Shown one piece after another: positions 54,583 to 64,000 of a stretch of 64,000 nucleotides of DNA. The stretch is from Candidatus Poribacteria bacterium (GTDB taxonomy: Bacteria > Poribacteria > WGA-4E > PCPOR2b), in NCBI GenBank assembly GCA_965208325.1, contig OZ242326.1:3136001-3200000 (forward strand). The letters are read 5' to 3'. The position numbers were made by a program, and so were the translations under genes. The first letter of the stretch is position 1. Each line of letters opens with the position of its first letter. Below the pieces are notes generated by a model that was not told where the DNA came from, ran no database searches, and saw only the letters and a list, made by a program, of their open reading frames with translations.

Positions 54583-56193
54583 ATGCAAGCGGAAGATGGG
54601 AAACAATCACAACGAAATAGCGAAATACGGCGGTTGCGCCAGCGCGTGGCGAGGTTAGAGCGCGATAGAGATAAATTCAAGCGGATGTCGGAGGCAGATC
54701 CATATTACAACGGCCCGGACATGTTTGCTTCTGCTGATGCCGTCTCGGAAAGGGTTCTCCACTGCAATGAAGCGTTATGCGCGGCGTTGGGTTACGCAGA
54801 AGCGGAGATTGTCGGCCGCCCTATTTCGAAGATATATCATCCGGACAGTGTTGAAAGTGCAAAGAAAGCCTTCGCTAGCCTTGTAAGCGACGGTACAATA
54901 CGTGATATGGAGCTAATACTGCGGAAGAGTGATGGAAGTGCGTTGGCGGTAAACTTAAATGCCGTAACCTACCGTAATACAAGAGGAAAGGCGCTTTACT
55001 GCCGGTTCATCTGGCGGGACATCACGCGGCAGAAGGAGACGGAACGGGAGCTTCGAGCGAGTGAAGAACGCTTTCACCAGTTGGCGAACAGCATCCGCGA
55101 GGTATTCTGGCTAATGTCGCTCGAAGGGGACGAGTTTTTCTACCTCAGCCCCGGATACGATGAGATATGGGGACGGTCCCGAACGGACTTAATGGCGGCG
55201 CCGATGTCGTGGGCGGACAGCATCTATCCGGATGACTTGCCGCAGGTTTTTGCGAATTTTGAGCGTCAGAAACGCGGCGATTTAGTGGAGTATGAGTTCC
55301 GTATGGTGCGTCCGGATGGTGAAATCCGTTGGATTCATGCGCGCGCCTTTCCAGTCAACGATGACAACGGCGTACCCTACCGCGTGGCGGGCTTTGCGCT
55401 GGACATCACGGAACGCAAGCGCGCCGAGGAGCAGTTAATTCAAGCGAGTAATATGGCCTTATTAGGGCAGCTCACCGCCGGCGTTGCGCACGAGATTAGC
55501 AACCCGACCAATTTTGTCTTGCTAAACGGAGAATCCCTTCAGACATCTTGGTCAAGCGTAATACCGTTTCTGGATGAATATTGCGGCGAGCACGGGGATT
55601 TCATGTGCGCCGGCATGCCCTATTCGAAATTGCGGGGTCGTATCAGCAAACTAGCTACCGGCATCATTGACGGTGCGAATCGAATCAAAAAAATCGTGGA
55701 TGCGCTCGGTGATTTCTCGCAAAGCGGCGGCGAAGATTTAAGCCAACCGGTCAATTGTAATGCGGTGATTGACTCCGCAGCCGTAATTATGCAGAATCTG
55801 ATTAAAACATCTACGAACCACTTCTCGACTCAATTTGAGGACAATCTGCCTGATGTTCTCGGCAACTCGCAACATCTCGAACAGGTATTTATTAACTTAA
55901 TCACGAACGCTTGCCATGCGCTGCCCGATCCGAGCAAAAAAATCGTGGTATCGACCCGAACGAATTCAAAGGGTGTATTGATTGAGGTTTGCGACGAGGG
56001 AGAGGGAATTCCGCCTGAAAATTTAGGACGCATTATGGACGCCTTCTTCACGACCAAGCGAGGTACCAGCGGCGTCGGACTAGGGCTTTCCATCTCTTAC
56101 AATATTGTCAAGAATCATGGCGGGGAATTAACCTTCTCCTCCGAACTTGGAAAGGGCACGACAGCGGCAGTCAAGCTGCCTGCCGCCCCTTAA
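54583..56193 (+). CDS. PAS-domain sensor histidine kinase (cytoplasmic)
   Basis: Two PAS/PAC regions; H-box GVAHEISNP, N-box NLITNA, DEGEGI, FFTTK, GVGLGLS. Confidence 0.93.
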   Translation: MQAEDGKQSQRNSEIRRLRQRVARLERDRDKFKRMSEADPYYNGPDMFASADAVSERVLHCNEALCAALGYAEAEIVGRPISKIYHPDSVESAKKAFASLVSDGTIRDMELILRKSDGSALAVNLNAVTYRNTRGKALYCRFIWRDITRQKETERELRASEERFHQLANSIREVFWLMSLEGDEFFYLSPGYDEIWGRSRTDLMAAPMSWADSIYPDDLPQVFANFERQKRGDLVEYEFRMVRPDGEIRWIHARAFPVNDDNGVPYRVAGFALDITERKRAEEQLIQASNMALLGQLTAGVAHEISNPTNFVLLNGESLQTSWSSVIPFLDEYCGEHGDFMCAGMPYSKLRGRISKLATGIIDGANRIKKIVDALGDFSQSGGEDLSQPVNCNAVIDSAAVIMQNLIKTSTNHFSTQFEDNLPDVLGNSQHLEQVFINLITNACHALPDPSKKIVVSTRTNSKGVLIEVCDEGEGIPPENLGRIMDAFFTTKRGTSGVGLGLSISYNIVKNHGGELTFSSELGKGTTAAVKLPAAP

Positions 56194-56203
56194 CGGTGAC
56201 TAT

Positions 56204-57649
56204 ATGAATCCAGTTCCGTTTCCTACGCATCCCATTCTACTGGTTGACGACGAAGAACATTTCCTATTCAGTGCGGATCACACGTTGAATTTAGCGGGCA
56301 TGAATAATATCGTCCAATGCGGTGACAGCCGACAGGTTATGTCCACGCTGTCAAAGAGAGACTTCTCGGTTGTGGTGCTGGACTTGCTGATGCCAGGCTT
56401 ATCCGGACTGGACATACTACCGTTGATTGTTTCGGACTTTCCGGAACTTCCCGTAATGGTCTTCACCGCAGTCAACAATGTGGAAACGGCGGTAGAGTGT
56501 CTGAAACTTGGGGCGTACGACTACATCCTGAAACCGATCGATAGCGTCAGGTTTGTGTCCACGGTTCGACGCGGTGTAGAAATGAGCGAACTGCGCCGCC
56601 AAAACCGGCAACTCAAAGACCGCCTCCTGTCCGACGCGTTGGAGCATCCTGAAGCGTTTTCGAACATCGTCACACAGGATCGTGCGATGTATGCCGTATT
56701 CCAATATACCGAGACAGTTGCTCCAACGCCGATGCCGGTTTTGATTACGGGCGCAACCGGCGTTGGCAAGGAACTGATTGCAGCGGCAATCCACAAGCTG
56801 AGCGGGCGGGAGGGTGAATTTGTTTCAGTCAATGTCTCGGGACTCGACGACCACCTATTCTCGGACGCGCTTTTCGGCCACAAAAAGGGAGCGTTTACGG
56901 GCGCGGATTCAGAGCGAAAGGGGTTAATTGAACGCGCGTCAAACGGCACGCTCTTCCTTGATGAAATCGGCGACCTGCACCTGGAATCGCAGGTCAAACT
57001 GCTGCGTTTTTTGCAGGAAAAAACTTACTACCCGCTTGGCGACGATTTCCCGCGAACAAATAACGCAAGAATAGTTGTTGCTACGAATCGAGATATACAA
57101 TTCCTGAGAGAGTCCGAAACTTTTCGCAACGACCTCTACTTCCGCTTGAAAACTCATCATATTCACCTGCCGCCGCTTCGCGAGCGGGCGGGCGATATCC
57201 CGTTATTGGTATCGCATTTTCTGGAAATCGCCGCTAAGAAACTAGAAAAGGAAACACCCACGGTTCCACCCGAACTTTATACCTTGCTTGGAACCCACCA
57301 CTTCCAGGGCAATATCCGAGAACTTGAAGGCATGGTACTAGACGCTGTCAGCCGGCACAAAGGGGGTGTACTTTCCACAGCATCTTTCGAGCGGGAAATT
57401 GGCGAGCAATCTATAGTTTCCCACGAGGATACGACAATTAAAGGAAGCAATTTTGCGGAAGGATTGTCGGCGCTCCCGGTACTTCCGGCATTGAAAGAAG
57501 CTTTGAAAGAAGCGGAACAACAGATAATTTCCGAAGCCCTTAAGCGCGCCGATGGCAACCAGACACTTGCAGCTAAACTCTTGGGGTTAACAAGACAGGC
57601 ACTGCACAACCGTTTGAGCCGCCTCCAAAAATCGTCGGACGACGCGTGA
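56204..57649 (+). CDS. Sigma54-dependent response regulator (NtrC-like)
   Basis: Receiver (LLVDDE, LDLLMP), GATGVGKE, GAFTGA, LFLDEIG, GNIRELE, Fis-type HTH. Confidence 0.95.
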   Translation: MNPVPFPTHPILLVDDEEHFLFSADHTLNLAGMNNIVQCGDSRQVMSTLSKRDFSVVVLDLLMPGLSGLDILPLIVSDFPELPVMVFTAVNNVETAVECLKLGAYDYILKPIDSVRFVSTVRRGVEMSELRRQNRQLKDRLLSDALEHPEAFSNIVTQDRAMYAVFQYTETVAPTPMPVLITGATGVGKELIAAAIHKLSGREGEFVSVNVSGLDDHLFSDALFGHKKGAFTGADSERKGLIERASNGTLFLDEIGDLHLESQVKLLRFLQEKTYYPLGDDFPRTNNARIVVATNRDIQFLRESETFRNDLYFRLKTHHIHLPPLRERAGDIPLLVSHFLEIAAKKLEKETPTVPPELYTLLGTHHFQGNIRELEGMVLDAVSRHKGGVLSTASFEREIGEQSIVSHEDTTIKGSNFAEGLSALPVLPALKEALKEAEQQIISEALKRADGNQTLAAKLLGLTRQALHNRLSRLQKSSDDA

Positions 57650-57747
57650 AGCGTCTTTCGGCATTTCCAACCTGCCCTTTCAATCTGTTCAATACTCTTC
57701 TCTCTCCTACAACTCCCTTTTCAAAGGGGTGACACATTACGTTTCTT

Positions 57748-57846
57748 TGTACATATTTTGTTTGCAACCCCTGAACACTAGTTTTGGTAAGGGTTCACGG
57801 GGTTTTCAATCGTCAATTCCCGAATGTTGTAAACAAAATGTTTCAC
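57748..57846. promoter_or_regulatory. Two candidate upstream activator sites
   Basis: TGTACATATTTTGTTTGCA (57748-57766) and TGTAAACAAAATGTTTCAC (57828-57846) are imperfect palindromes sharing TG(C/T)AAACAAAAT in opposite orientations. Confidence 0.5.
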
Positions 57847-57972
57847 CCCTTTCCAAATCTCGCCAGGGCGCTGCCGCTCCAGTCTGAAAAATAATTTAAA
57901 ATGCCCGTATCCCTTGATACGTAAGGTTTTCCGAGTCCAAACCGAGTCTAAATTTGGGTATAATTTTAGCTT

Positions 57973-57988
57973 TGGCATAGAAATTGCT
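57973..57988 (+). promoter_or_regulatory. Sigma54 (-24/-12) promoter
   Basis: TGGCATAGAAATTGCT has GG-N10-GC spacing and matches TGGCA-N6-TTGCW; it lies just downstream of a sigma54 activator gene. Confidence 0.85.
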
Positions 57989-58051
57989 CATACAATGCCC
58001 AAAGTATCTTGATTTGGAACGCGGAGATTCACTATCAAGGGGGCGGCGTCA

Positions 58052-60088
58052 ATGAATTTTGGGGTCACGCGCATTTCACTTGCCATTGGGTTTTCCGTTG
58101 TACTCGTTTGCTTGGTTCCTTACACGCCAAGCATTGCGGATGCCCCCGATGCCTTTACGCTCATATATGCCGGTGAGGAAGGTGGGCAGCTTGGACTGCA
58201 CGGATGCGGAACCGAGCAAGTCGGCGGGCTTTCCCGACGCCAGACCGTCATTCACTCCTTGCGTGAAGTACACGCCGCCGCTCTGAACCTTCACGCCGGA
58301 AACATCCTCGACCCAGCCGACCCAAACAGTGAACTCATCTGCCAAATCGCCCTCGAAGCCTTGAGCGTAATGAATTACGATGCGCTCTGCCTCGGACCGG
58401 GCGACTTGTGTCTTCCCCTTGATTCACTTTCTGCCCTCTACGCCAACCATCCAGATTTGCCCGTTATTTGCACGAATATCGTAGTAGGGGCGCGGTTCCC
58501 GCGCCCGTTTGAAGTTGTCGAAGCGGCGAAGAGAAAAGTCGCCGTGGTTGGGTTGATATCAAATTCGTATGAAACTGAGATTTCCGCATACAATCCGGGT
58601 GTCGCCATCACCCGTCCAATGGAAGCGCTAGAGACGTTGGGGGAAGTAATTACGCGTCAAAGCGATATTGTCGTGGGCGTGTTTCACGGATCAGAGGCGG
58701 AGGCGCGTGAACTTGCAGAGCGATTCTCATGGCTATCCGTTCTCGTCCTCGCCAAGAATGAAACTTCTGAATCAGCCTCGGCGACACCGATTGTCGTAGG
58801 AAACACAACCATTGTCTCCAACCCCGCGAAAGGAGAAGCGGTTGGTGTTCTGGAGATTGGACTCGACGCGGTTCGGCAACAAGTAGTGTCGAGGAAGAAT
58901 CAGCGTGTTACGGTCTCGGAAGGAGTTGTACCCGACGCTGACCTTGAAACCTTATTAGCGCTCTACGATTCCCTATACGAAGAAGACGAATTTGACGGTC
59001 AAGAGCTTGTACTTGATGACCGTGCCGTTCATATCACCTACTTCCATAAACGGGGCTGCCAGAAGTGTGCCAGAGCCAATGAGATTTTGAAACGCCTTAA
59101 AACCGAATACCCGCAGATTGTGGTTGAAAAACGCGACGCCAAAACCGACCAACAACTGCTTGAGGCGATGGGGGCGCTTTTCAACGTTCCGGAGGTGAAA
59201 CGGCTCACCTCACCTGCAGTATTTATTGGCGATGCGTACCTGCTGGATGAACTTGATGAGTCGCAACTGGAAGAGATTATCGGAACATACCTCGCAACGG
59301 GAGTCGCGTCTCGGATATCCGAGGCAAAAGCTAAAACCGGGGAAGCGGAATCCGAAATTGTCAAACGCTTTAGCGCGTTCGGGACATTGGCTGTTGCGGG
59401 TGCGGGATTGCTTGATGGGATTAACCCGTGTGCATTTGCCACCATTGTGTTCTTCATCTCCTATCTTTCACTCGTTGGACGGTCGCGTAGAGAGATGCTC
59501 GTCGCCGGCGGTGCATTCGCTGCCGCGGTGTTTGTAACCTACCTGCTGTTGGGGATGGGCTTGCTCAAGTTTCTCTCGTTTCTCAACGAGTTCTCCGTCG
59601 TTGCCAAGTGCGTTTACCTAGTGGCCGCGATTGGGACGTTCACGCTGGCGTTCTTGAGCATTTATGACGCTATCAAAGCCAAACAGGGCAAGGTGAAGGA
59701 GATTACATTGCAGTTGCCCAAGTCGCTGAAACAGCGTATCCACAAAGTCATCCGCGAACAGACGCGGACATCAAGCGTCATTATCGGCGCGTTAGTCATC
59801 GGGTTCGCAATATCTGCCCTAGAGTTAGTCTGTACGGGTCAAGTGTATTTGCCGACGATTACGTTTGTGATGGGTGTTGAGGGGATGCGAGTAAATGCGC
59901 TAGCGTATCTGATTCTGTACAATATGATGTTTATCACGCCACTGCTGATAGTGTTCTGCTTTGTGTATTGGGGCACGACTTCGATGCAGTTGGGCGGTGT
60001 GCTGCAACGGCATCTGATGCCCGTTAAGGTTGGAACCGGGGTGTTGTTGCTTGGTTTAGGATTTTGGCTATTGCTGCGCACTGTATAA
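58052..60088 (+). CDS. Fusion: degenerate 5'-nucleotidase-like domain, thioredoxin/glutaredoxin domain (CQKC), CcdA/DsbD-like membrane domain
   Basis: Signal peptide; HGCG...GGLSRR; YFHKRGCQKC...SPAVFIGD; AGLLDGINPCAF and LELVCTGQVYLP transmembrane cysteines. Confidence 0.85.
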   Translation: MNFGVTRISLAIGFSVVLVCLVPYTPSIADAPDAFTLIYAGEEGGQLGLHGCGTEQVGGLSRRQTVIHSLREVHAAALNLHAGNILDPADPNSELICQIALEALSVMNYDALCLGPGDLCLPLDSLSALYANHPDLPVICTNIVVGARFPRPFEVVEAAKRKVAVVGLISNSYETEISAYNPGVAITRPMEALETLGEVITRQSDIVVGVFHGSEAEARELAERFSWLSVLVLAKNETSESASATPIVVGNTTIVSNPAKGEAVGVLEIGLDAVRQQVVSRKNQRVTVSEGVVPDADLETLLALYDSLYEEDEFDGQELVLDDRAVHITYFHKRGCQKCARANEILKRLKTEYPQIVVEKRDAKTDQQLLEAMGALFNVPEVKRLTSPAVFIGDAYLLDELDESQLEEIIGTYLATGVASRISEAKAKTGEAESEIVKRFSAFGTLAVAGAGLLDGINPCAFATIVFFISYLSLVGRSRREMLVAGGAFAAAVFVTYLLLGMGLLKFLSFLNEFSVVAKCVYLVAAIGTFTLAFLSIYDAIKAKQGKVKEITLQLPKSLKQRIHKVIREQTRTSSVIIGALVIGFAISALELVCTGQVYLPTITFVMGVEGMRVNALAYLILYNMMFITPLLIVFCFVYWGTTSMQLGGVLQRHLMPVKVGTGVLLLGLGFWLLLRTV

Positions 60089-60108
60089 CATGAGGAGGCT
60101 CGGCGATA

Positions 60109-61992
60109 ATGACGATAAGGAAATGCCACCAACCCGCAATAACGTATGATGCAAATCGTTATCTGTCAACAAGAATCGAGGCCGTCACACATTTAGTTAT
60201 TTTGTCGATTCTGATGAACTTCAGCATTTTTCCCGCAGATGCCCAAAATCAACAGGAACAGATCGTTTTTGTGTCTGAAGGGGACGACCGTGACGAAATA
60301 CATCTCAGCAAGCCCGGAGGCGGTCAAATTCAAAAACTTACTTTACAACAAAAACGCTATGCCACACCATCGTTATCGTTTGATGGAAAACGGGTCGCAT
60401 TTGCCTCGGCAGACGGTCGAAGTCGAGACTACGACATTTTTGTTATGGATATACAATCTCGAGAACAGCGTCAAGTGACATTTATAGCAAGTCGAGACCT
60501 TTATCCGTCTTGGTCGCCCGATGGAAGTCGGATTGTGTTCGCTTCGGACAGAGAAGGTGTTTTCAATCTCTACACCGTGGATGAGAATGGGGAAAACCGT
60601 ACCCGCCTGACGAATAGTTCGGGTGACGATATCCATCCTGACTGGTCTCCGGACGGGAGCAAAATCGCGTTCGCTTCCGATCAGGCAAGCGCAGTTCATC
60701 AGGTTTACTGGATGGATCCACGAACAGGGCACCAACAAAAACTGACTCAAAGCAATATAGGAATGGATTACCCGCGATGGTCGCCTGATGGGACTAAAAT
60801 AGCATTCTATTCGGCAGTTGTTGTGAAGGCATCGGGGGTCCTCAGACAAATTTGGCAAGTCAGCGCTGATGGAACCGGCTTAAAAAGTCTAATTAGAGAC
60901 GGCGAATTCAATGATGAACCCGTCCTTTCTCCCACTTTAAAGCACATCGCCTTTACATCTACTAGGGACGATAACACGGACATTTATATCTTCGATCGGG
61001 ATTCCCGGCAAATTCTGCGTCTAACTCACCACCCATCTTCAGATTCGCAGCCGAGTTGGTCGCCGGACGGTAAACACCTTGCGTTCATCTCACACAGATC
61101 GGGCAACGTTGACATTTACAGGATTAACGCCGATGGAGGCGGGCTTGTGAATCTGACTCGCAGCGATGCCGATGAATCTATGCCGGTTTGGTCTCCGAAG
61201 AAGGACATGATCTGTTTCCTGGGAAATGTAGATGGAAGGTGGGAACTTCGTGTGATGGACGGCAACGGAAAGCGTCAAAATCGGCTGGATAATAGCGTGT
61301 TTTACAGCTCACCGCCGACATGGTTGCCGCGGGGCGATAAGATTGCCTTTGTGAGTATGCCCGATCCGCTTGGTAGGGATTACCGTATCTATACGATGGA
61401 TACGGACGGGCAGAACAAGCGATTGTTGTTTAGGACAGTAGCCGGCGAAATTCGAAAAATCAGTTGGTCGGCAGATGGCGACCAATTGCTGTTTGTCCAT
61501 TACGCCAACGGGGTTCACGAAATCCGTATGCTTGATGTGATTACACGAGAGATCGACTCAATTGATTTGAAGTTGAAGGTGGTTGCGCCTGACAACGCGG
61601 CTTGGGCGCCTTTAGGCCGGACGATTGTGTTTTCAGCCTTACCAATAATAAGCCAACGGTCCACAGTACGCTATGGCATTTTCTTGATTGACGCCGACAG
61701 CGATAAACGTCAAGAAGCAGAACCTCTATTGAATACCTTCAGTCCCCAGCCGATTCGGTTCACCGACAGCAGAGCGCGTTTTTCATGGTCACCGGATGGG
61801 CAAAACTTGCTGTTTCGCCGGGGAAATTCTGAGAACCTTTACGTGACTGGATTGCGAGGGGGAGGCGTCACACGTTTTCGCAGAAATGCGCATTCACCGG
61901 ATTGGAAGACGCCTCGTGTCTGGCGGAGCGTAACTCCCAAGAACAAGCTGCAAACGACCTGGGGAGAAGTCAAAGAAATAAACCGTGAGTAA
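60109..61992 (+). CDS. TolB-like double beta-propeller (PD40 repeats) with C-terminal KLxTTWGxxK motif
   Basis: Repeated P.WSPDG.KIAF.S; ends SVTPKNKLQTTWGEVK; GAGGAGG RBS. Confidence 0.9.
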   Translation: MTIRKCHQPAITYDANRYLSTRIEAVTHLVILSILMNFSIFPADAQNQQEQIVFVSEGDDRDEIHLSKPGGGQIQKLTLQQKRYATPSLSFDGKRVAFASADGRSRDYDIFVMDIQSREQRQVTFIASRDLYPSWSPDGSRIVFASDREGVFNLYTVDENGENRTRLTNSSGDDIHPDWSPDGSKIAFASDQASAVHQVYWMDPRTGHQQKLTQSNIGMDYPRWSPDGTKIAFYSAVVVKASGVLRQIWQVSADGTGLKSLIRDGEFNDEPVLSPTLKHIAFTSTRDDNTDIYIFDRDSRQILRLTHHPSSDSQPSWSPDGKHLAFISHRSGNVDIYRINADGGGLVNLTRSDADESMPVWSPKKDMICFLGNVDGRWELRVMDGNGKRQNRLDNSVFYSSPPTWLPRGDKIAFVSMPDPLGRDYRIYTMDTDGQNKRLLFRTVAGEIRKISWSADGDQLLFVHYANGVHEIRMLDVITREIDSIDLKLKVVAPDNAAWAPLGRTIVFSALPIISQRSTVRYGIFLIDADSDKRQEAEPLLNTFSPQPIRFTDSRARFSWSPDGQNLLFRRGNSENLYVTGLRGGGVTRFRRNAHSPDWKTPRVWRSVTPKNKLQTTWGEVKEINRE

Positions 61993-62060
61993 CCTCATTA
62001 TTTTAGGCTTCATTTGCCAAATACTGCCATCACCTGTCTCGTTCGGATGAGGTAACGATT

Positions 62061-62735
62061 ATGCGAAAAAAACGCCTTCCTTTGGTGATACTACTAAGCA
62101 TAGCAGTTTCATGTATACTCTACGTTTTCATATCCAATTGGTTGGAAGAACCAGAAATCCAGATAGTATACGTGCTGCCGGATGAACCCATCAAGCCTGT
62201 CACTAAACGGCGGTCTCGGTATTATGCTGCTCATGCTCAAACCACAGGGCTAGGCGAACAACATGAGTCGATGGAAGTACAGCATGAACTACCTGATGAA
62301 ATGGAACGCGATACACGAGATTTCAACACATCGCTAGCAGAAGCAGAAAGTCACAGTCTAAATGAAGAAGGGCTTAATGAATCCGTGCAGGAAGTAGTGT
62401 CCCTTGAGGAGAGCATTGCAAAACTTAAGGAAGATAGGAAATCTGCATTGGCAACATACCAAGAAGCAGTAGATGCAATCATAAAATACGGACGCCGGGA
62501 GAACGAACTCTTGGGCGAAGACAAGTATCTAGAATTATCGGGGTACAAAGCGGATAGCCCTCAAAGAGCGGCGGTTTTGCAAGAACTTTCCGAAATTGCG
62601 TTAAAATCTGAAGAACTGGGCATGCAAAAAGAAGGAGTTAAACTAACACTCGCAGAGATTAATCAAGAACTCCCGATGCTTGAAAGCCGGCTTAAAGCGT
62701 TGCTAGCATCGGGCGTAGACAATACAGAATTCTGA
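62061..62735 (+). CDS. Membrane-anchored acidic coiled-coil hypothetical protein
   Basis: N-terminal basic residues plus TM, E-rich heptad pattern; GAGGT RBS. Confidence 0.7.
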   Translation: MRKKRLPLVILLSIAVSCILYVFISNWLEEPEIQIVYVLPDEPIKPVTKRRSRYYAAHAQTTGLGEQHESMEVQHELPDEMERDTRDFNTSLAEAESHSLNEEGLNESVQEVVSLEESIAKLKEDRKSALATYQEAVDAIIKYGRRENELLGEDKYLELSGYKADSPQRAAVLQELSEIALKSEELGMQKEGVKLTLAEINQELPMLESRLKALLASGVDNTEF

Positions 62736-62926
62736 TTCGATAGCTAATTGGTAAAAACAACACTTGGTTAAGGAGGTGATGTATTGCACTCAACAACTTG
62801 CAATGTATGCAACTGCCGATGGGATTTCCCCGCGCATTTGCATACACCTTTCCTAACGGTTGGGAAAGGAAAAACGCCCAAGCTTGTTGGGCGTGATTTC
62901 ACCTAAATTTTGGGAGGTATAGAATC

Positions 62927-63424
62927 ATGTTTGCCAAACGAATTTTGACGCAGAGTGTTGTATATTGGACGTTTCTTTTGGCTGTTTTGACAACCCTAAC
63001 CGCCTTTTCGTTAACACAGGACGCGCCGGAAAGTTCAAGCCTGATTGCTTTAGACCCGAGTGAGATGGCAACCATAGTCGGCGGCGCCGGAATCTGTAAG
63101 GAATGCGTGCGAGACGACACTATATTCCGATGTGAGGGCGGGCCGATATGGTGTGCGCCCGGCGAAGAATGCGCAAATTTCGGTCACTGCGCGGAGGCAG
63201 GTGCTAGTCCCCAAAGTGAACACGTCTACTGCTATTATCCAGAATGGACGTGCAGTGGAAATACCATCCCCGGAGCCGCTCCAATGTGTCACGAAACGAA
63301 TGATGGCGTGAGTGTGAGGATTTACAATTGTGACTGCATTAACGGCAAATGTACTACGCGTACCTCTGTCATTGCAGGCCGTACGTGCACCCAGAACGGT
63401 CCTGGTCACTGCCCGTATCTCTAA
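62927..63424 (+). CDS. Secreted cysteine-rich protein with double-glycine leader-like motif
   Basis: Hydrophobic signal, LDPSEMATIVGG, then a 112-aa core with 14 Cys; GGAGGT RBS. Confidence 0.8.
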   Translation: MFAKRILTQSVVYWTFLLAVLTTLTAFSLTQDAPESSSLIALDPSEMATIVGGAGICKECVRDDTIFRCEGGPIWCAPGEECANFGHCAEAGASPQSEHVYCYYPEWTCSGNTIPGAAPMCHETNDGVSVRIYNCDCINGKCTTRTSVIAGRTCTQNGPGHCPYL

Positions 63425-63441
63425 TGATTAACAATTTAAAT

Positions 63442-63477
63442 TGGCTACAGCCCTTAATTCATCAAGGGTTGTAGCCA
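63442..63477 (+). terminator. Stem-loop after the Cys-rich gene
   Basis: TGGCTACAGCCCTT-N8-AAGGGTTGTAGCCA (14-bp stem, one G-U pair); no strong U-tract. Confidence 0.5.
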
Positions 63478-63527
63478 CGCCAATTCCTTTATTGGACAGC
63501 GCATTTATATTAACGGACAATTTACTT

Positions 63528-63681
63528 TACCTCATTACTATTAGTGTTCGGGTTTGTGTATTGGGGCACGACTTCGATGCAGTTGGGCGGTGTGCTGCAG
63601 CGCCACCTGATGCCGGTGAAGCTAGGAACCGGGGTGTTGTTGCTTGGTTTAGGATTTTGGCTATTGCTGCGCACTGTATAA
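63528..63681 (+). pseudogene. Duplicated 3' fragment of the CcdA-fusion gene
   Basis: Encodes ...LVFGFVYWGTTSMQLGGVLQRHLMPVKLGTGVLLLGLGFWLLLRTV*, near-identical to the end of 58052-60088, with no start of its own. Confidence 0.85.
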
Positions 63682-63701
63682 CATGAGGAGGCTCGGCGAT
63701 A

Positions 63702-64000
63702 ATGACGATAAGGAAATGCCACCAACCCGCAATAACGTATGATTCGAATTGTTTTCTGTCAACAAGAATCGAGGCCGTCACGCTTTTTGTCATTTTGTCG
63801 ATTCTGATGAACTTCAGCATTTTTCCCGCAGATGCCCAAAATCTACAAGAGCAGATCGTTTTTGTGTCTGAAGGGGACGACCGTGACGAAATACATCTCA
63901 GCAAGCCCGGAGGCGGTCAAATTCAAAAACTTACTTTACAACAAAAACGTTATGCCACACCATCGTTGTCGTACGATGGAAAACGGGTCGCATTTGCATC
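63702..64000 (+). CDS. Second TolB-like propeller paralog, truncated by the window edge
   Basis: MTIRKCHQPAITYDSNCFLSTRIEAVTLFVILSILMNFSIFPADAQNLQEQIVFVSEGDD..., near-identical to 60109 onward at an offset of 3593 bp. Confidence 0.9.
   Translation, partial: MTIRKCHQPAITYDSNCFLSTRIEAVTLFVILSILMNFSIFPADAQNLQEQIVFVSEGDDRDEIHLSKPGGGQIQKLTLQQKRYATPSLSYDGKRVAFA

Follow-up and report, generated by a model that had tools for sequence, protein, structure and literature searches.

Gene content of the locus

We analyzed a window of 64,000 nt from a Candidatus Poribacteria genome (assembly GCA_965208325.1, contig OZ242326.1, positions 3,136,001 to 3,200,000), in which a sigma54-type promoter is followed by genes for a redox fusion, a TolB-like propeller, a membrane-anchored protein and a Cys-rich precursor with a GG leader. 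The locus probably belongs to a Poribacteria family whose loci are predicted to mature exported disulfide-rich mini-proteins, as a copy that has been rearranged and lacks some of the genes. Positions follow the numbering of the window, numbers above 64,000 refer to DNA beyond it, and the window's own genome, assembled as one contig of 4.7 Mb, is called G000. Sequencing runs containing this stretch are mostly sponge metagenomes. Checks of open reading frames (ORFs), domains and motifs recovered every gene and signal listed in an initial annotation of the window, and the features are as follows:

54583..56193, + strand: soluble histidine kinase, PAS-PAS-HisKA-HATPase (Pfam PAS_3, PAS_9, HATPase_c)
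56204..57649, + strand: NtrC-type sigma54 activator, receiver-AAA-HTH (Pfam Response_reg, Sigma54_activat, HTH_8)
57718-57744 and 57831-57857, no strand: inverted-repeat pair, candidate activator binding sites (27-nt arms, 81% complementary)
57973..57987, + strand: sigma54 -24/-12 element (consensus match)
58052..60088, + strand: UshA-like / glutaredoxin CxxC / CcdA-like membrane fusion, the gene that heads loci of the family (domain profiles, invariant Cys)
60109..61992, + strand: TolB-like double propeller with a TWG..K tail and three tandem paralogues behind it (Pfam PD40)
62061..62735, + strand: acidic helical protein with an N-terminal anchor, candidate for the cognate partner (no Pfam or NCBIfam family)
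62927..63424, + strand: precursor made up of a hydrophobic signal region, a GG leader that ends at 63085, and a core (leader matrix, HHalign, homologues)
63442..63477, no strand: hairpin 3' of the precursor gene, without a T tail (inverted-repeat scan)
63542..64000, + strand: first part of a duplicated segment, with what is left of the redox gene's 3' end and then propeller 2, whose gene begins at 63702 and extends past the window end

Precursor, leader and core

The window precursor has a core of 112 aa with 14 Cys, behind a leader with the residues L, M and I and then GG. When ORFs were ranked with a leader matrix built without this precursor, it came first of 7961 (23.8 vs 16.1), and its leader aligned with those of relatives by HHalign at 93.9% (E 1.6e-7); resemblance to the relatives' family is confined to the leader. 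Four homologues of the precursor (67-79% identity) keep 13 of the 14 Cys invariant. A hydrophobic stretch lies N-terminal to the leader in the window and in relatives, and in family precursors generally a GG-type leader follows a hydrophobic start and the cores have 79-112 aa and 6-14 Cys, the core Cys count being even in 27 of 28 precursors and the residue at -4 hydrophobic in 23 of 28. Cores form 13 clusters among 38 candidates; in one of these, with a mean identity of 35%, 12/12 members share 8 invariant Cys. The pattern that the initial annotation had looked for, conserved leaders with divergent cores, is seen in the relatives, which share a common leader and have hypervariable cores. Tandem precursors occur in loci L034, L036 and L048, and a precursor-partner block is duplicated in L042.

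Searches for the window precursor in 29 family genomes found it in G000 only, two metagenome scans found no locus, and the ESM Atlas gave no usable match. The window core folded from its single sequence to an unusable model (pLDDT 44), and the core model of L045 had no match in Foldseek and a best VIA Z of 4.6.

Family loci and the C39-DUF1573 protease

A family locus comprises a sigma54 promoter, the redox fusion, a precursor, an anchored partner, a LolA-like protein, a C39-DUF1573 protease, an FGE-fold protein and often a glycosyltransferase. We examined 43 loci headed by the redox fusion or a related UshA-haem gene, with DUF1573 present in 36, FGE in 34, C39 in 25 and PMT-like genes in 11. 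Two suggestions of the initial annotation are borne out by this set: the genes recur together in other genomes, and the redox module accompanies disulfide-rich exported proteins across family loci. The window locus itself has no C39, LolA-like, FGE or glycosyltransferase gene, so the protease could not have been seen from it. Loci L036, L041 and L045 are intact and better examples of the family, of which the window locus is a poor, decayed one.

The sole C39 gene of G000 (C1:2667546-2669030) lies 0.53 Mb from the window locus, in a paralogous locus (G000:C1:2660748-2672193) that holds an activator, a similar promoter (near-identical in the same -24/-12 region), a redox fusion of 84% identity (at G000:C1:2662586), DUF1573, a LolA-like gene (a label transferred from relatives' fusions), an 11-Cys exported protein, C39-DUF1573, FGE and PMT_2. 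This C39 is fused to DUF1573 and has no ABC part, as in 4/4 of the relatives' C39 proteins scanned. The C39 proteins have a hydrophobic N-terminus, and their C39 domains retain the catalytic Cys and His in 27/27 and the Asp in 26/27. Against NCBIfam, relatives' C39 domains matched FapD (E 1.9e-6, far below cut-off) and FilB (E 3.7e-4). Within the phylum, 88 of 159 genomes have C39 matches, part of which were inspected, and the nearest C39-DUF1573 clusters in the Atlas are commonest in Planctomycetota. DUF1573 is counted as a selenoprotein family in the accessible part of one paper (PMC13188914); selenocysteine at the DUF1573 CxC was rejected here, with 27 Cys forms and a single stop that proved to be an off-strand match.

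Other cassette forms were also encountered. A second type (L050, L096, L099, L102-L104, L106, L109, L110) encodes leaderless Cys-rich exported proteins and DUF1573 without C39, several with a partner that has a Cys-containing C-terminal motif. In L046, L068-L071 and L151-L164 the head gene is a fusion of UshA-like and multihaem cytochrome c554 parts instead of the CcdA-like fusion, possibly an alternative redox module, and leaders in these cassettes often end in GT, GA or AT. Numerous cassettes are disrupted or rearranged or have no precursor (L156, L157, L166, L167, L169, L055-L057, L060), which suggests rapid turnover.

Pairing of leader and protease

A GG leader is present in 23 of 24 C39 loci with a precursor (25 C39 loci among the 43) and in 1 of 10 C39-less loci with a precursor, that one being the window; these loci are related by descent and are not independent data points. 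Loci with no accepted precursor (L032, L033, L040, L052, L069, L098, L101, L105, L113) were set aside from the count; the C39 gene of L052 lies just outside the 12.5-kb span taken there, and in L098 a Cys-rich ORF failed the filter. On a tree of 35 head genes, the four GG loci that were not used to train the leader matrix interleave with nine GG-less ones, and supported discordant sisters are L108/L110 and L103/L107. When the rule was frozen and applied to 20 newly drawn C39 loci, 11 passed and a twelfth narrowly failed the hydrophobicity filter; among 82 candidate ORFs of G000 the window gene was the only one to pass.

A number of points weigh against the pairing, or against the window gene as a working member of it. 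The leader matrix was trained on 19 of the 23 GG loci, leader positions -12 and -7 were fixed by the search pattern, and the AxA-like site in 26/28 precursors was scored by a loose rule in place of a signal-peptide predictor. Eight of the 20 new C39 loci showed no precursor, and L040 likewise has C39 without one. The GG-less precursors may stem from one cassette type, so the correlation between GG and C39 could rest on one event. The precursor beside the C39 of G000 itself has a poor leader (score -11), and the enzyme may therefore not prefer the leader of the window. No C39 was found in G001 and G003, which keep propellers and the head gene (broken in G001); locus decay would thus be frequent, with the window gene perhaps a relic. 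As for the partners, their co-assortment with cores (described below) could arise from linkage alone, and HHalign (19%) detected no homology between the window partner and other partners.

Anchored partner

The window partner has 8 homologues and was found in 2 of 61 genomes, the second copy truncated. Against a profile of the helical partners it ranked no higher than shuffled sequences. Across 27 loci, the family of the partner goes with that of the core (adjusted Rand 0.87, reached in 0/5000 shuffles), in keeping with the cognate partners envisaged in the initial annotation. Complex prediction for a relative's core and its partner gave 0.11, with the mark at 0.32, and speaks neither for nor against pairing.

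Redox fusion

What had been described as a thioredoxin-CcdA fusion is present; the description was incomplete, as the protein also has, at its N-terminus, a domain resembling UshA/5'-nucleotidase (NF041198, E 2e-29, a match below cut-off). Its Glutaredoxin Pfam match is above cut-off. The membrane part received no CcdA or DsbD label from Pfam models and had no match in the PDB, and an ArsG-family model matched weakly over residues 450-674 (E 0.005). C52, C336/C339, C460 and C594 are invariant in 7/7 fusion sequences, and the membrane part is labelled CcdA-like because two membrane cysteines are among the invariant ones. Of 37 loci with redox-fusion relatives, 36 are from Poribacteria.

Promoter and regulators

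The sigma54 control proposed at the outset appears well founded, with an activator whose GAFTGA motif is intact, a -24/-12 element and upstream sites all found. G000 encodes kinase paralogues elsewhere (82% and 59% identity) and three activator paralogues (62-69% identity). Relative to the -24 element, upstream box 1 lies at -245 to -247 in 5/6 paralogous promoters and box 2 at -148 to -159 in 4/6, and a sigma54-type match precedes the head gene in 25 of the 43 loci. The promoter with its upstream boxes recurs in G000 (C1 3023860-3024931, 3057029-3058213, 3385705-3387589 and ~862850-863300), in two cases before a transmembrane (TM) acidic protein and a small exported protein; these promoters may form a small regulon of partner pairs. 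A terminator scan did not list the hairpin at 63442-63477 among terminator-like structures. A terminator-like hairpin of the minus strand lies at 62874-62894, between the partner and precursor genes.

Propellers and the downstream repeat

The initial annotation had read a restart of the whole unit at +3593 bp. Positions 59949-61974 and 63542-65573 are indeed 91% identical at an offset of +3593, and the duplicated piece, 2.03 kb, consists of the 3' end of the redox gene (a remnant spanning residues 626-659) and the propeller only. Three further propeller genes follow (63702-65579, 65670-67559, 67650-69548), then a truncated second TM gene (69617-69949) and a gene that we take, from its sequence, to be triosephosphate-isomerase-like. 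The Cys-rich gene has one match in the whole of G000. The downstream copy has no Cys-rich gene, an outcome that the initial annotation itself had named as refuting its proposal, and the second TM gene is truncated; cassettes of propeller, coiled-coil and Cys-rich genes are thus not repeated in tandem here. The repeat is not an assembly artefact, because propeller copies are 62-87% identical to each other and a contig from a second study spans the TM gene, the Cys gene and the junction with 4 differences in 1456 bases.

The window propeller scored 298 bits against the TolB model TIGR02800 (cut-off 343), and no Tol-Pal genes were seen among propeller neighbours. Propellers of 620 aa lie 3' of the redox gene in this genus only (G000, G001, G003). 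The orthologous locus of G002 has the kinase, activator and redox gene, then ~17 kb of FGE, PMT and sugar genes, and after this cargo two propellers and a truncated TM gene, followed by the downstream genes also found at the window locus; G003 has the redox gene and two propellers and no precursor. The propellers are a genus-level feature, since the loci of G002 and G003 carry them, and the four in G000 are probably passengers produced by local duplication. A TWG..K-type motif ends 51 of 3767 ORFs in G000, 23 of them propeller-like, compared with 1 for internal control windows. The motif is likely a sorting signal, and the window propellers appear to belong to a large, genome-wide secreted class. 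A second propeller array, of three genes, was noted at G000 C1:1054049-1059973.

Proposed route and alternatives

In the route that we propose, the PAS kinase would phosphorylate the activator, which would open the sigma54 promoter. The precursor would be exported by Sec and lose its signal peptide, and the CcdA-like/thioredoxin fusion, with the CxC-bearing DUF1573, would shuffle disulfides into seven core bonds, as DsbD/CcdA biology suggests (PMC3322552, accessible part). The membrane-anchored, ABC-free C39-DUF1573 would then work from the periplasmic side and cut off the short GG propeptide, a predicted step that has strong genomic support. Since the genes for the protease, LolA-like protein, FGE and glycosyltransferase are missing from the window locus, its precursor would have to be cut in trans by the protease of the paralogous locus, and the chances of such a dependence seem about even. 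The mature protein may be a polymorphic effector of competition or recognition, and the anchored protein encoded next to it may be its cognate partner, for immunity or as a receptor; this role is favored because cores are hypervariable and anchored partners co-assort with them, and it is the weakest step, which we hold only tentatively. Taken as a whole, we regard as possible, with some doubt, a periplasmic route of Poribacteria and Planctomycetes that folds, cuts and possibly glycosylates or oxidizes Sec-exported, GG-tagged hypervariable mini-proteins, which would then act as polymorphic effectors alongside cognate membrane partners; the window pair would be a satellite served in trans.

The main rival for the role of the product keeps the same maturation and has the products build a surface fibre or coat, as its subunits or its tips, in the manner of Fap amyloid or the Fil pilus. 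The Ig-like DUF1573 and the LolA-like domain would then chaperone assembly, and the glycosyltransferase would decorate the product. The weak FapD and FilB matches of relatives' C39, the presence of Ig-like repeats and a LolA-like domain, the PMT-type genes and a relative's core modelled as a long four-stranded sheet (pLDDT 70-84) are consistent with this rival. We nevertheless think it unlikely, as the cores are Cys-rich and hypervariable, unlike conserved fibre subunits, and no outer-membrane pore was recognized among the scanned proteins, which covered part of the locus genes and involved no FapF-specific search. A comparable degree of doubt attaches to the idea that the family is real and the window copy a non-functional relic, its promoter maintaining the propellers only: the missing protease, LolA-like, FGE and glycosyltransferase genes, the gene remnants at the flanks and the other cargo between the same flanks in G002 would fit, but the precursor and partner ORFs are intact, their homologues (52-93% identity) retain the leader and cysteines, and an intact C39 exists in trans. 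Far less probable is an array of propeller, coiled-coil and Cys-rich units served by one folding module. Although propeller and TM gene are linked twice (60109-62336 vs 67656-69892, 88%) and L042 has its duplicated precursor block, the Cys-rich gene is single, the second TM gene is truncated, and the window propeller family stands beside a precursor in none of the other loci of the set of 43; for G000 the array is refuted. The window precursor is a real member of an apparently undescribed periplasmic GG/C39 family, in a decayed copy.

Comparison with known systems

Like DsbD, CcdA and ScsB (PMC3322552, same part), the redox fusion has two conserved membrane cysteines and a thioredoxin-fold CxxC domain; it differs in its order (UshA-like, thioredoxin, membrane), in having no match to a DsbD model and in being dedicated, as a type, to one cassette family. 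With the PCAT/AMS class of GG-leader bacteriocins, microcins and glycocins the family shares the GG/GA leader with hydrophobic -4, -7 and -12 (PMC10885120, accessible part) and what appears to be a C39 with its catalytic residues retained, and with glycocin clusters it shares thiol-disulfide helpers and a glycosyltransferase (PMC12457901, accessible part). Here, however, Ig-like DUF1573 and LolA-like domains take the place of an ABC transporter in the C39 fusion, an extra hydrophobic signal region precedes the leader, which is thus not at the very N-terminus, the core is 79-112 aa long, and the glycosyltransferase is of PMT type. Judged by sequence, the window family is outside the class of PCAT-exported bacteriocins and glycocins, given the missing ABC fusion and the extra signal region.

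We found no literature account of a C39-DUF1573 system, subscription journals and supplements being outside the scope; papers on DUF1573, judged by title and the start of the abstract, held none, and for periplasmic or standalone C39 the Fap paper alone was found (PMC5557850, accessible part). Pseudomonas FapD is there a C39 peptidase with an export signal that acts in the periplasm on Sec substrates; Fap proteins are without canonical C39 sites, the target of FapD is unclear and the C39 class uncharacterized. If the proposed route is true, the classic GG-leader/C39 pair is no longer tied to the cytoplasm or to ABC export, this periplasmic C39 class gains a canonical substrate set, DUF1573 is assigned a role, and a dominant uncultured sponge symbiont holds a pool of natural multi-disulfide mini-proteins. 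If it is exported and works in the periplasm on Sec substrates, as predicted, the family's C39, with its hydrophobic N-terminus and its catalytic Cys and His retained (27/27), would resemble FapD; Fap substrates are Asn/Gln amyloid repeats, whereas the precursors described here have canonical leaders and Cys-rich, unrepeated, variable cores.

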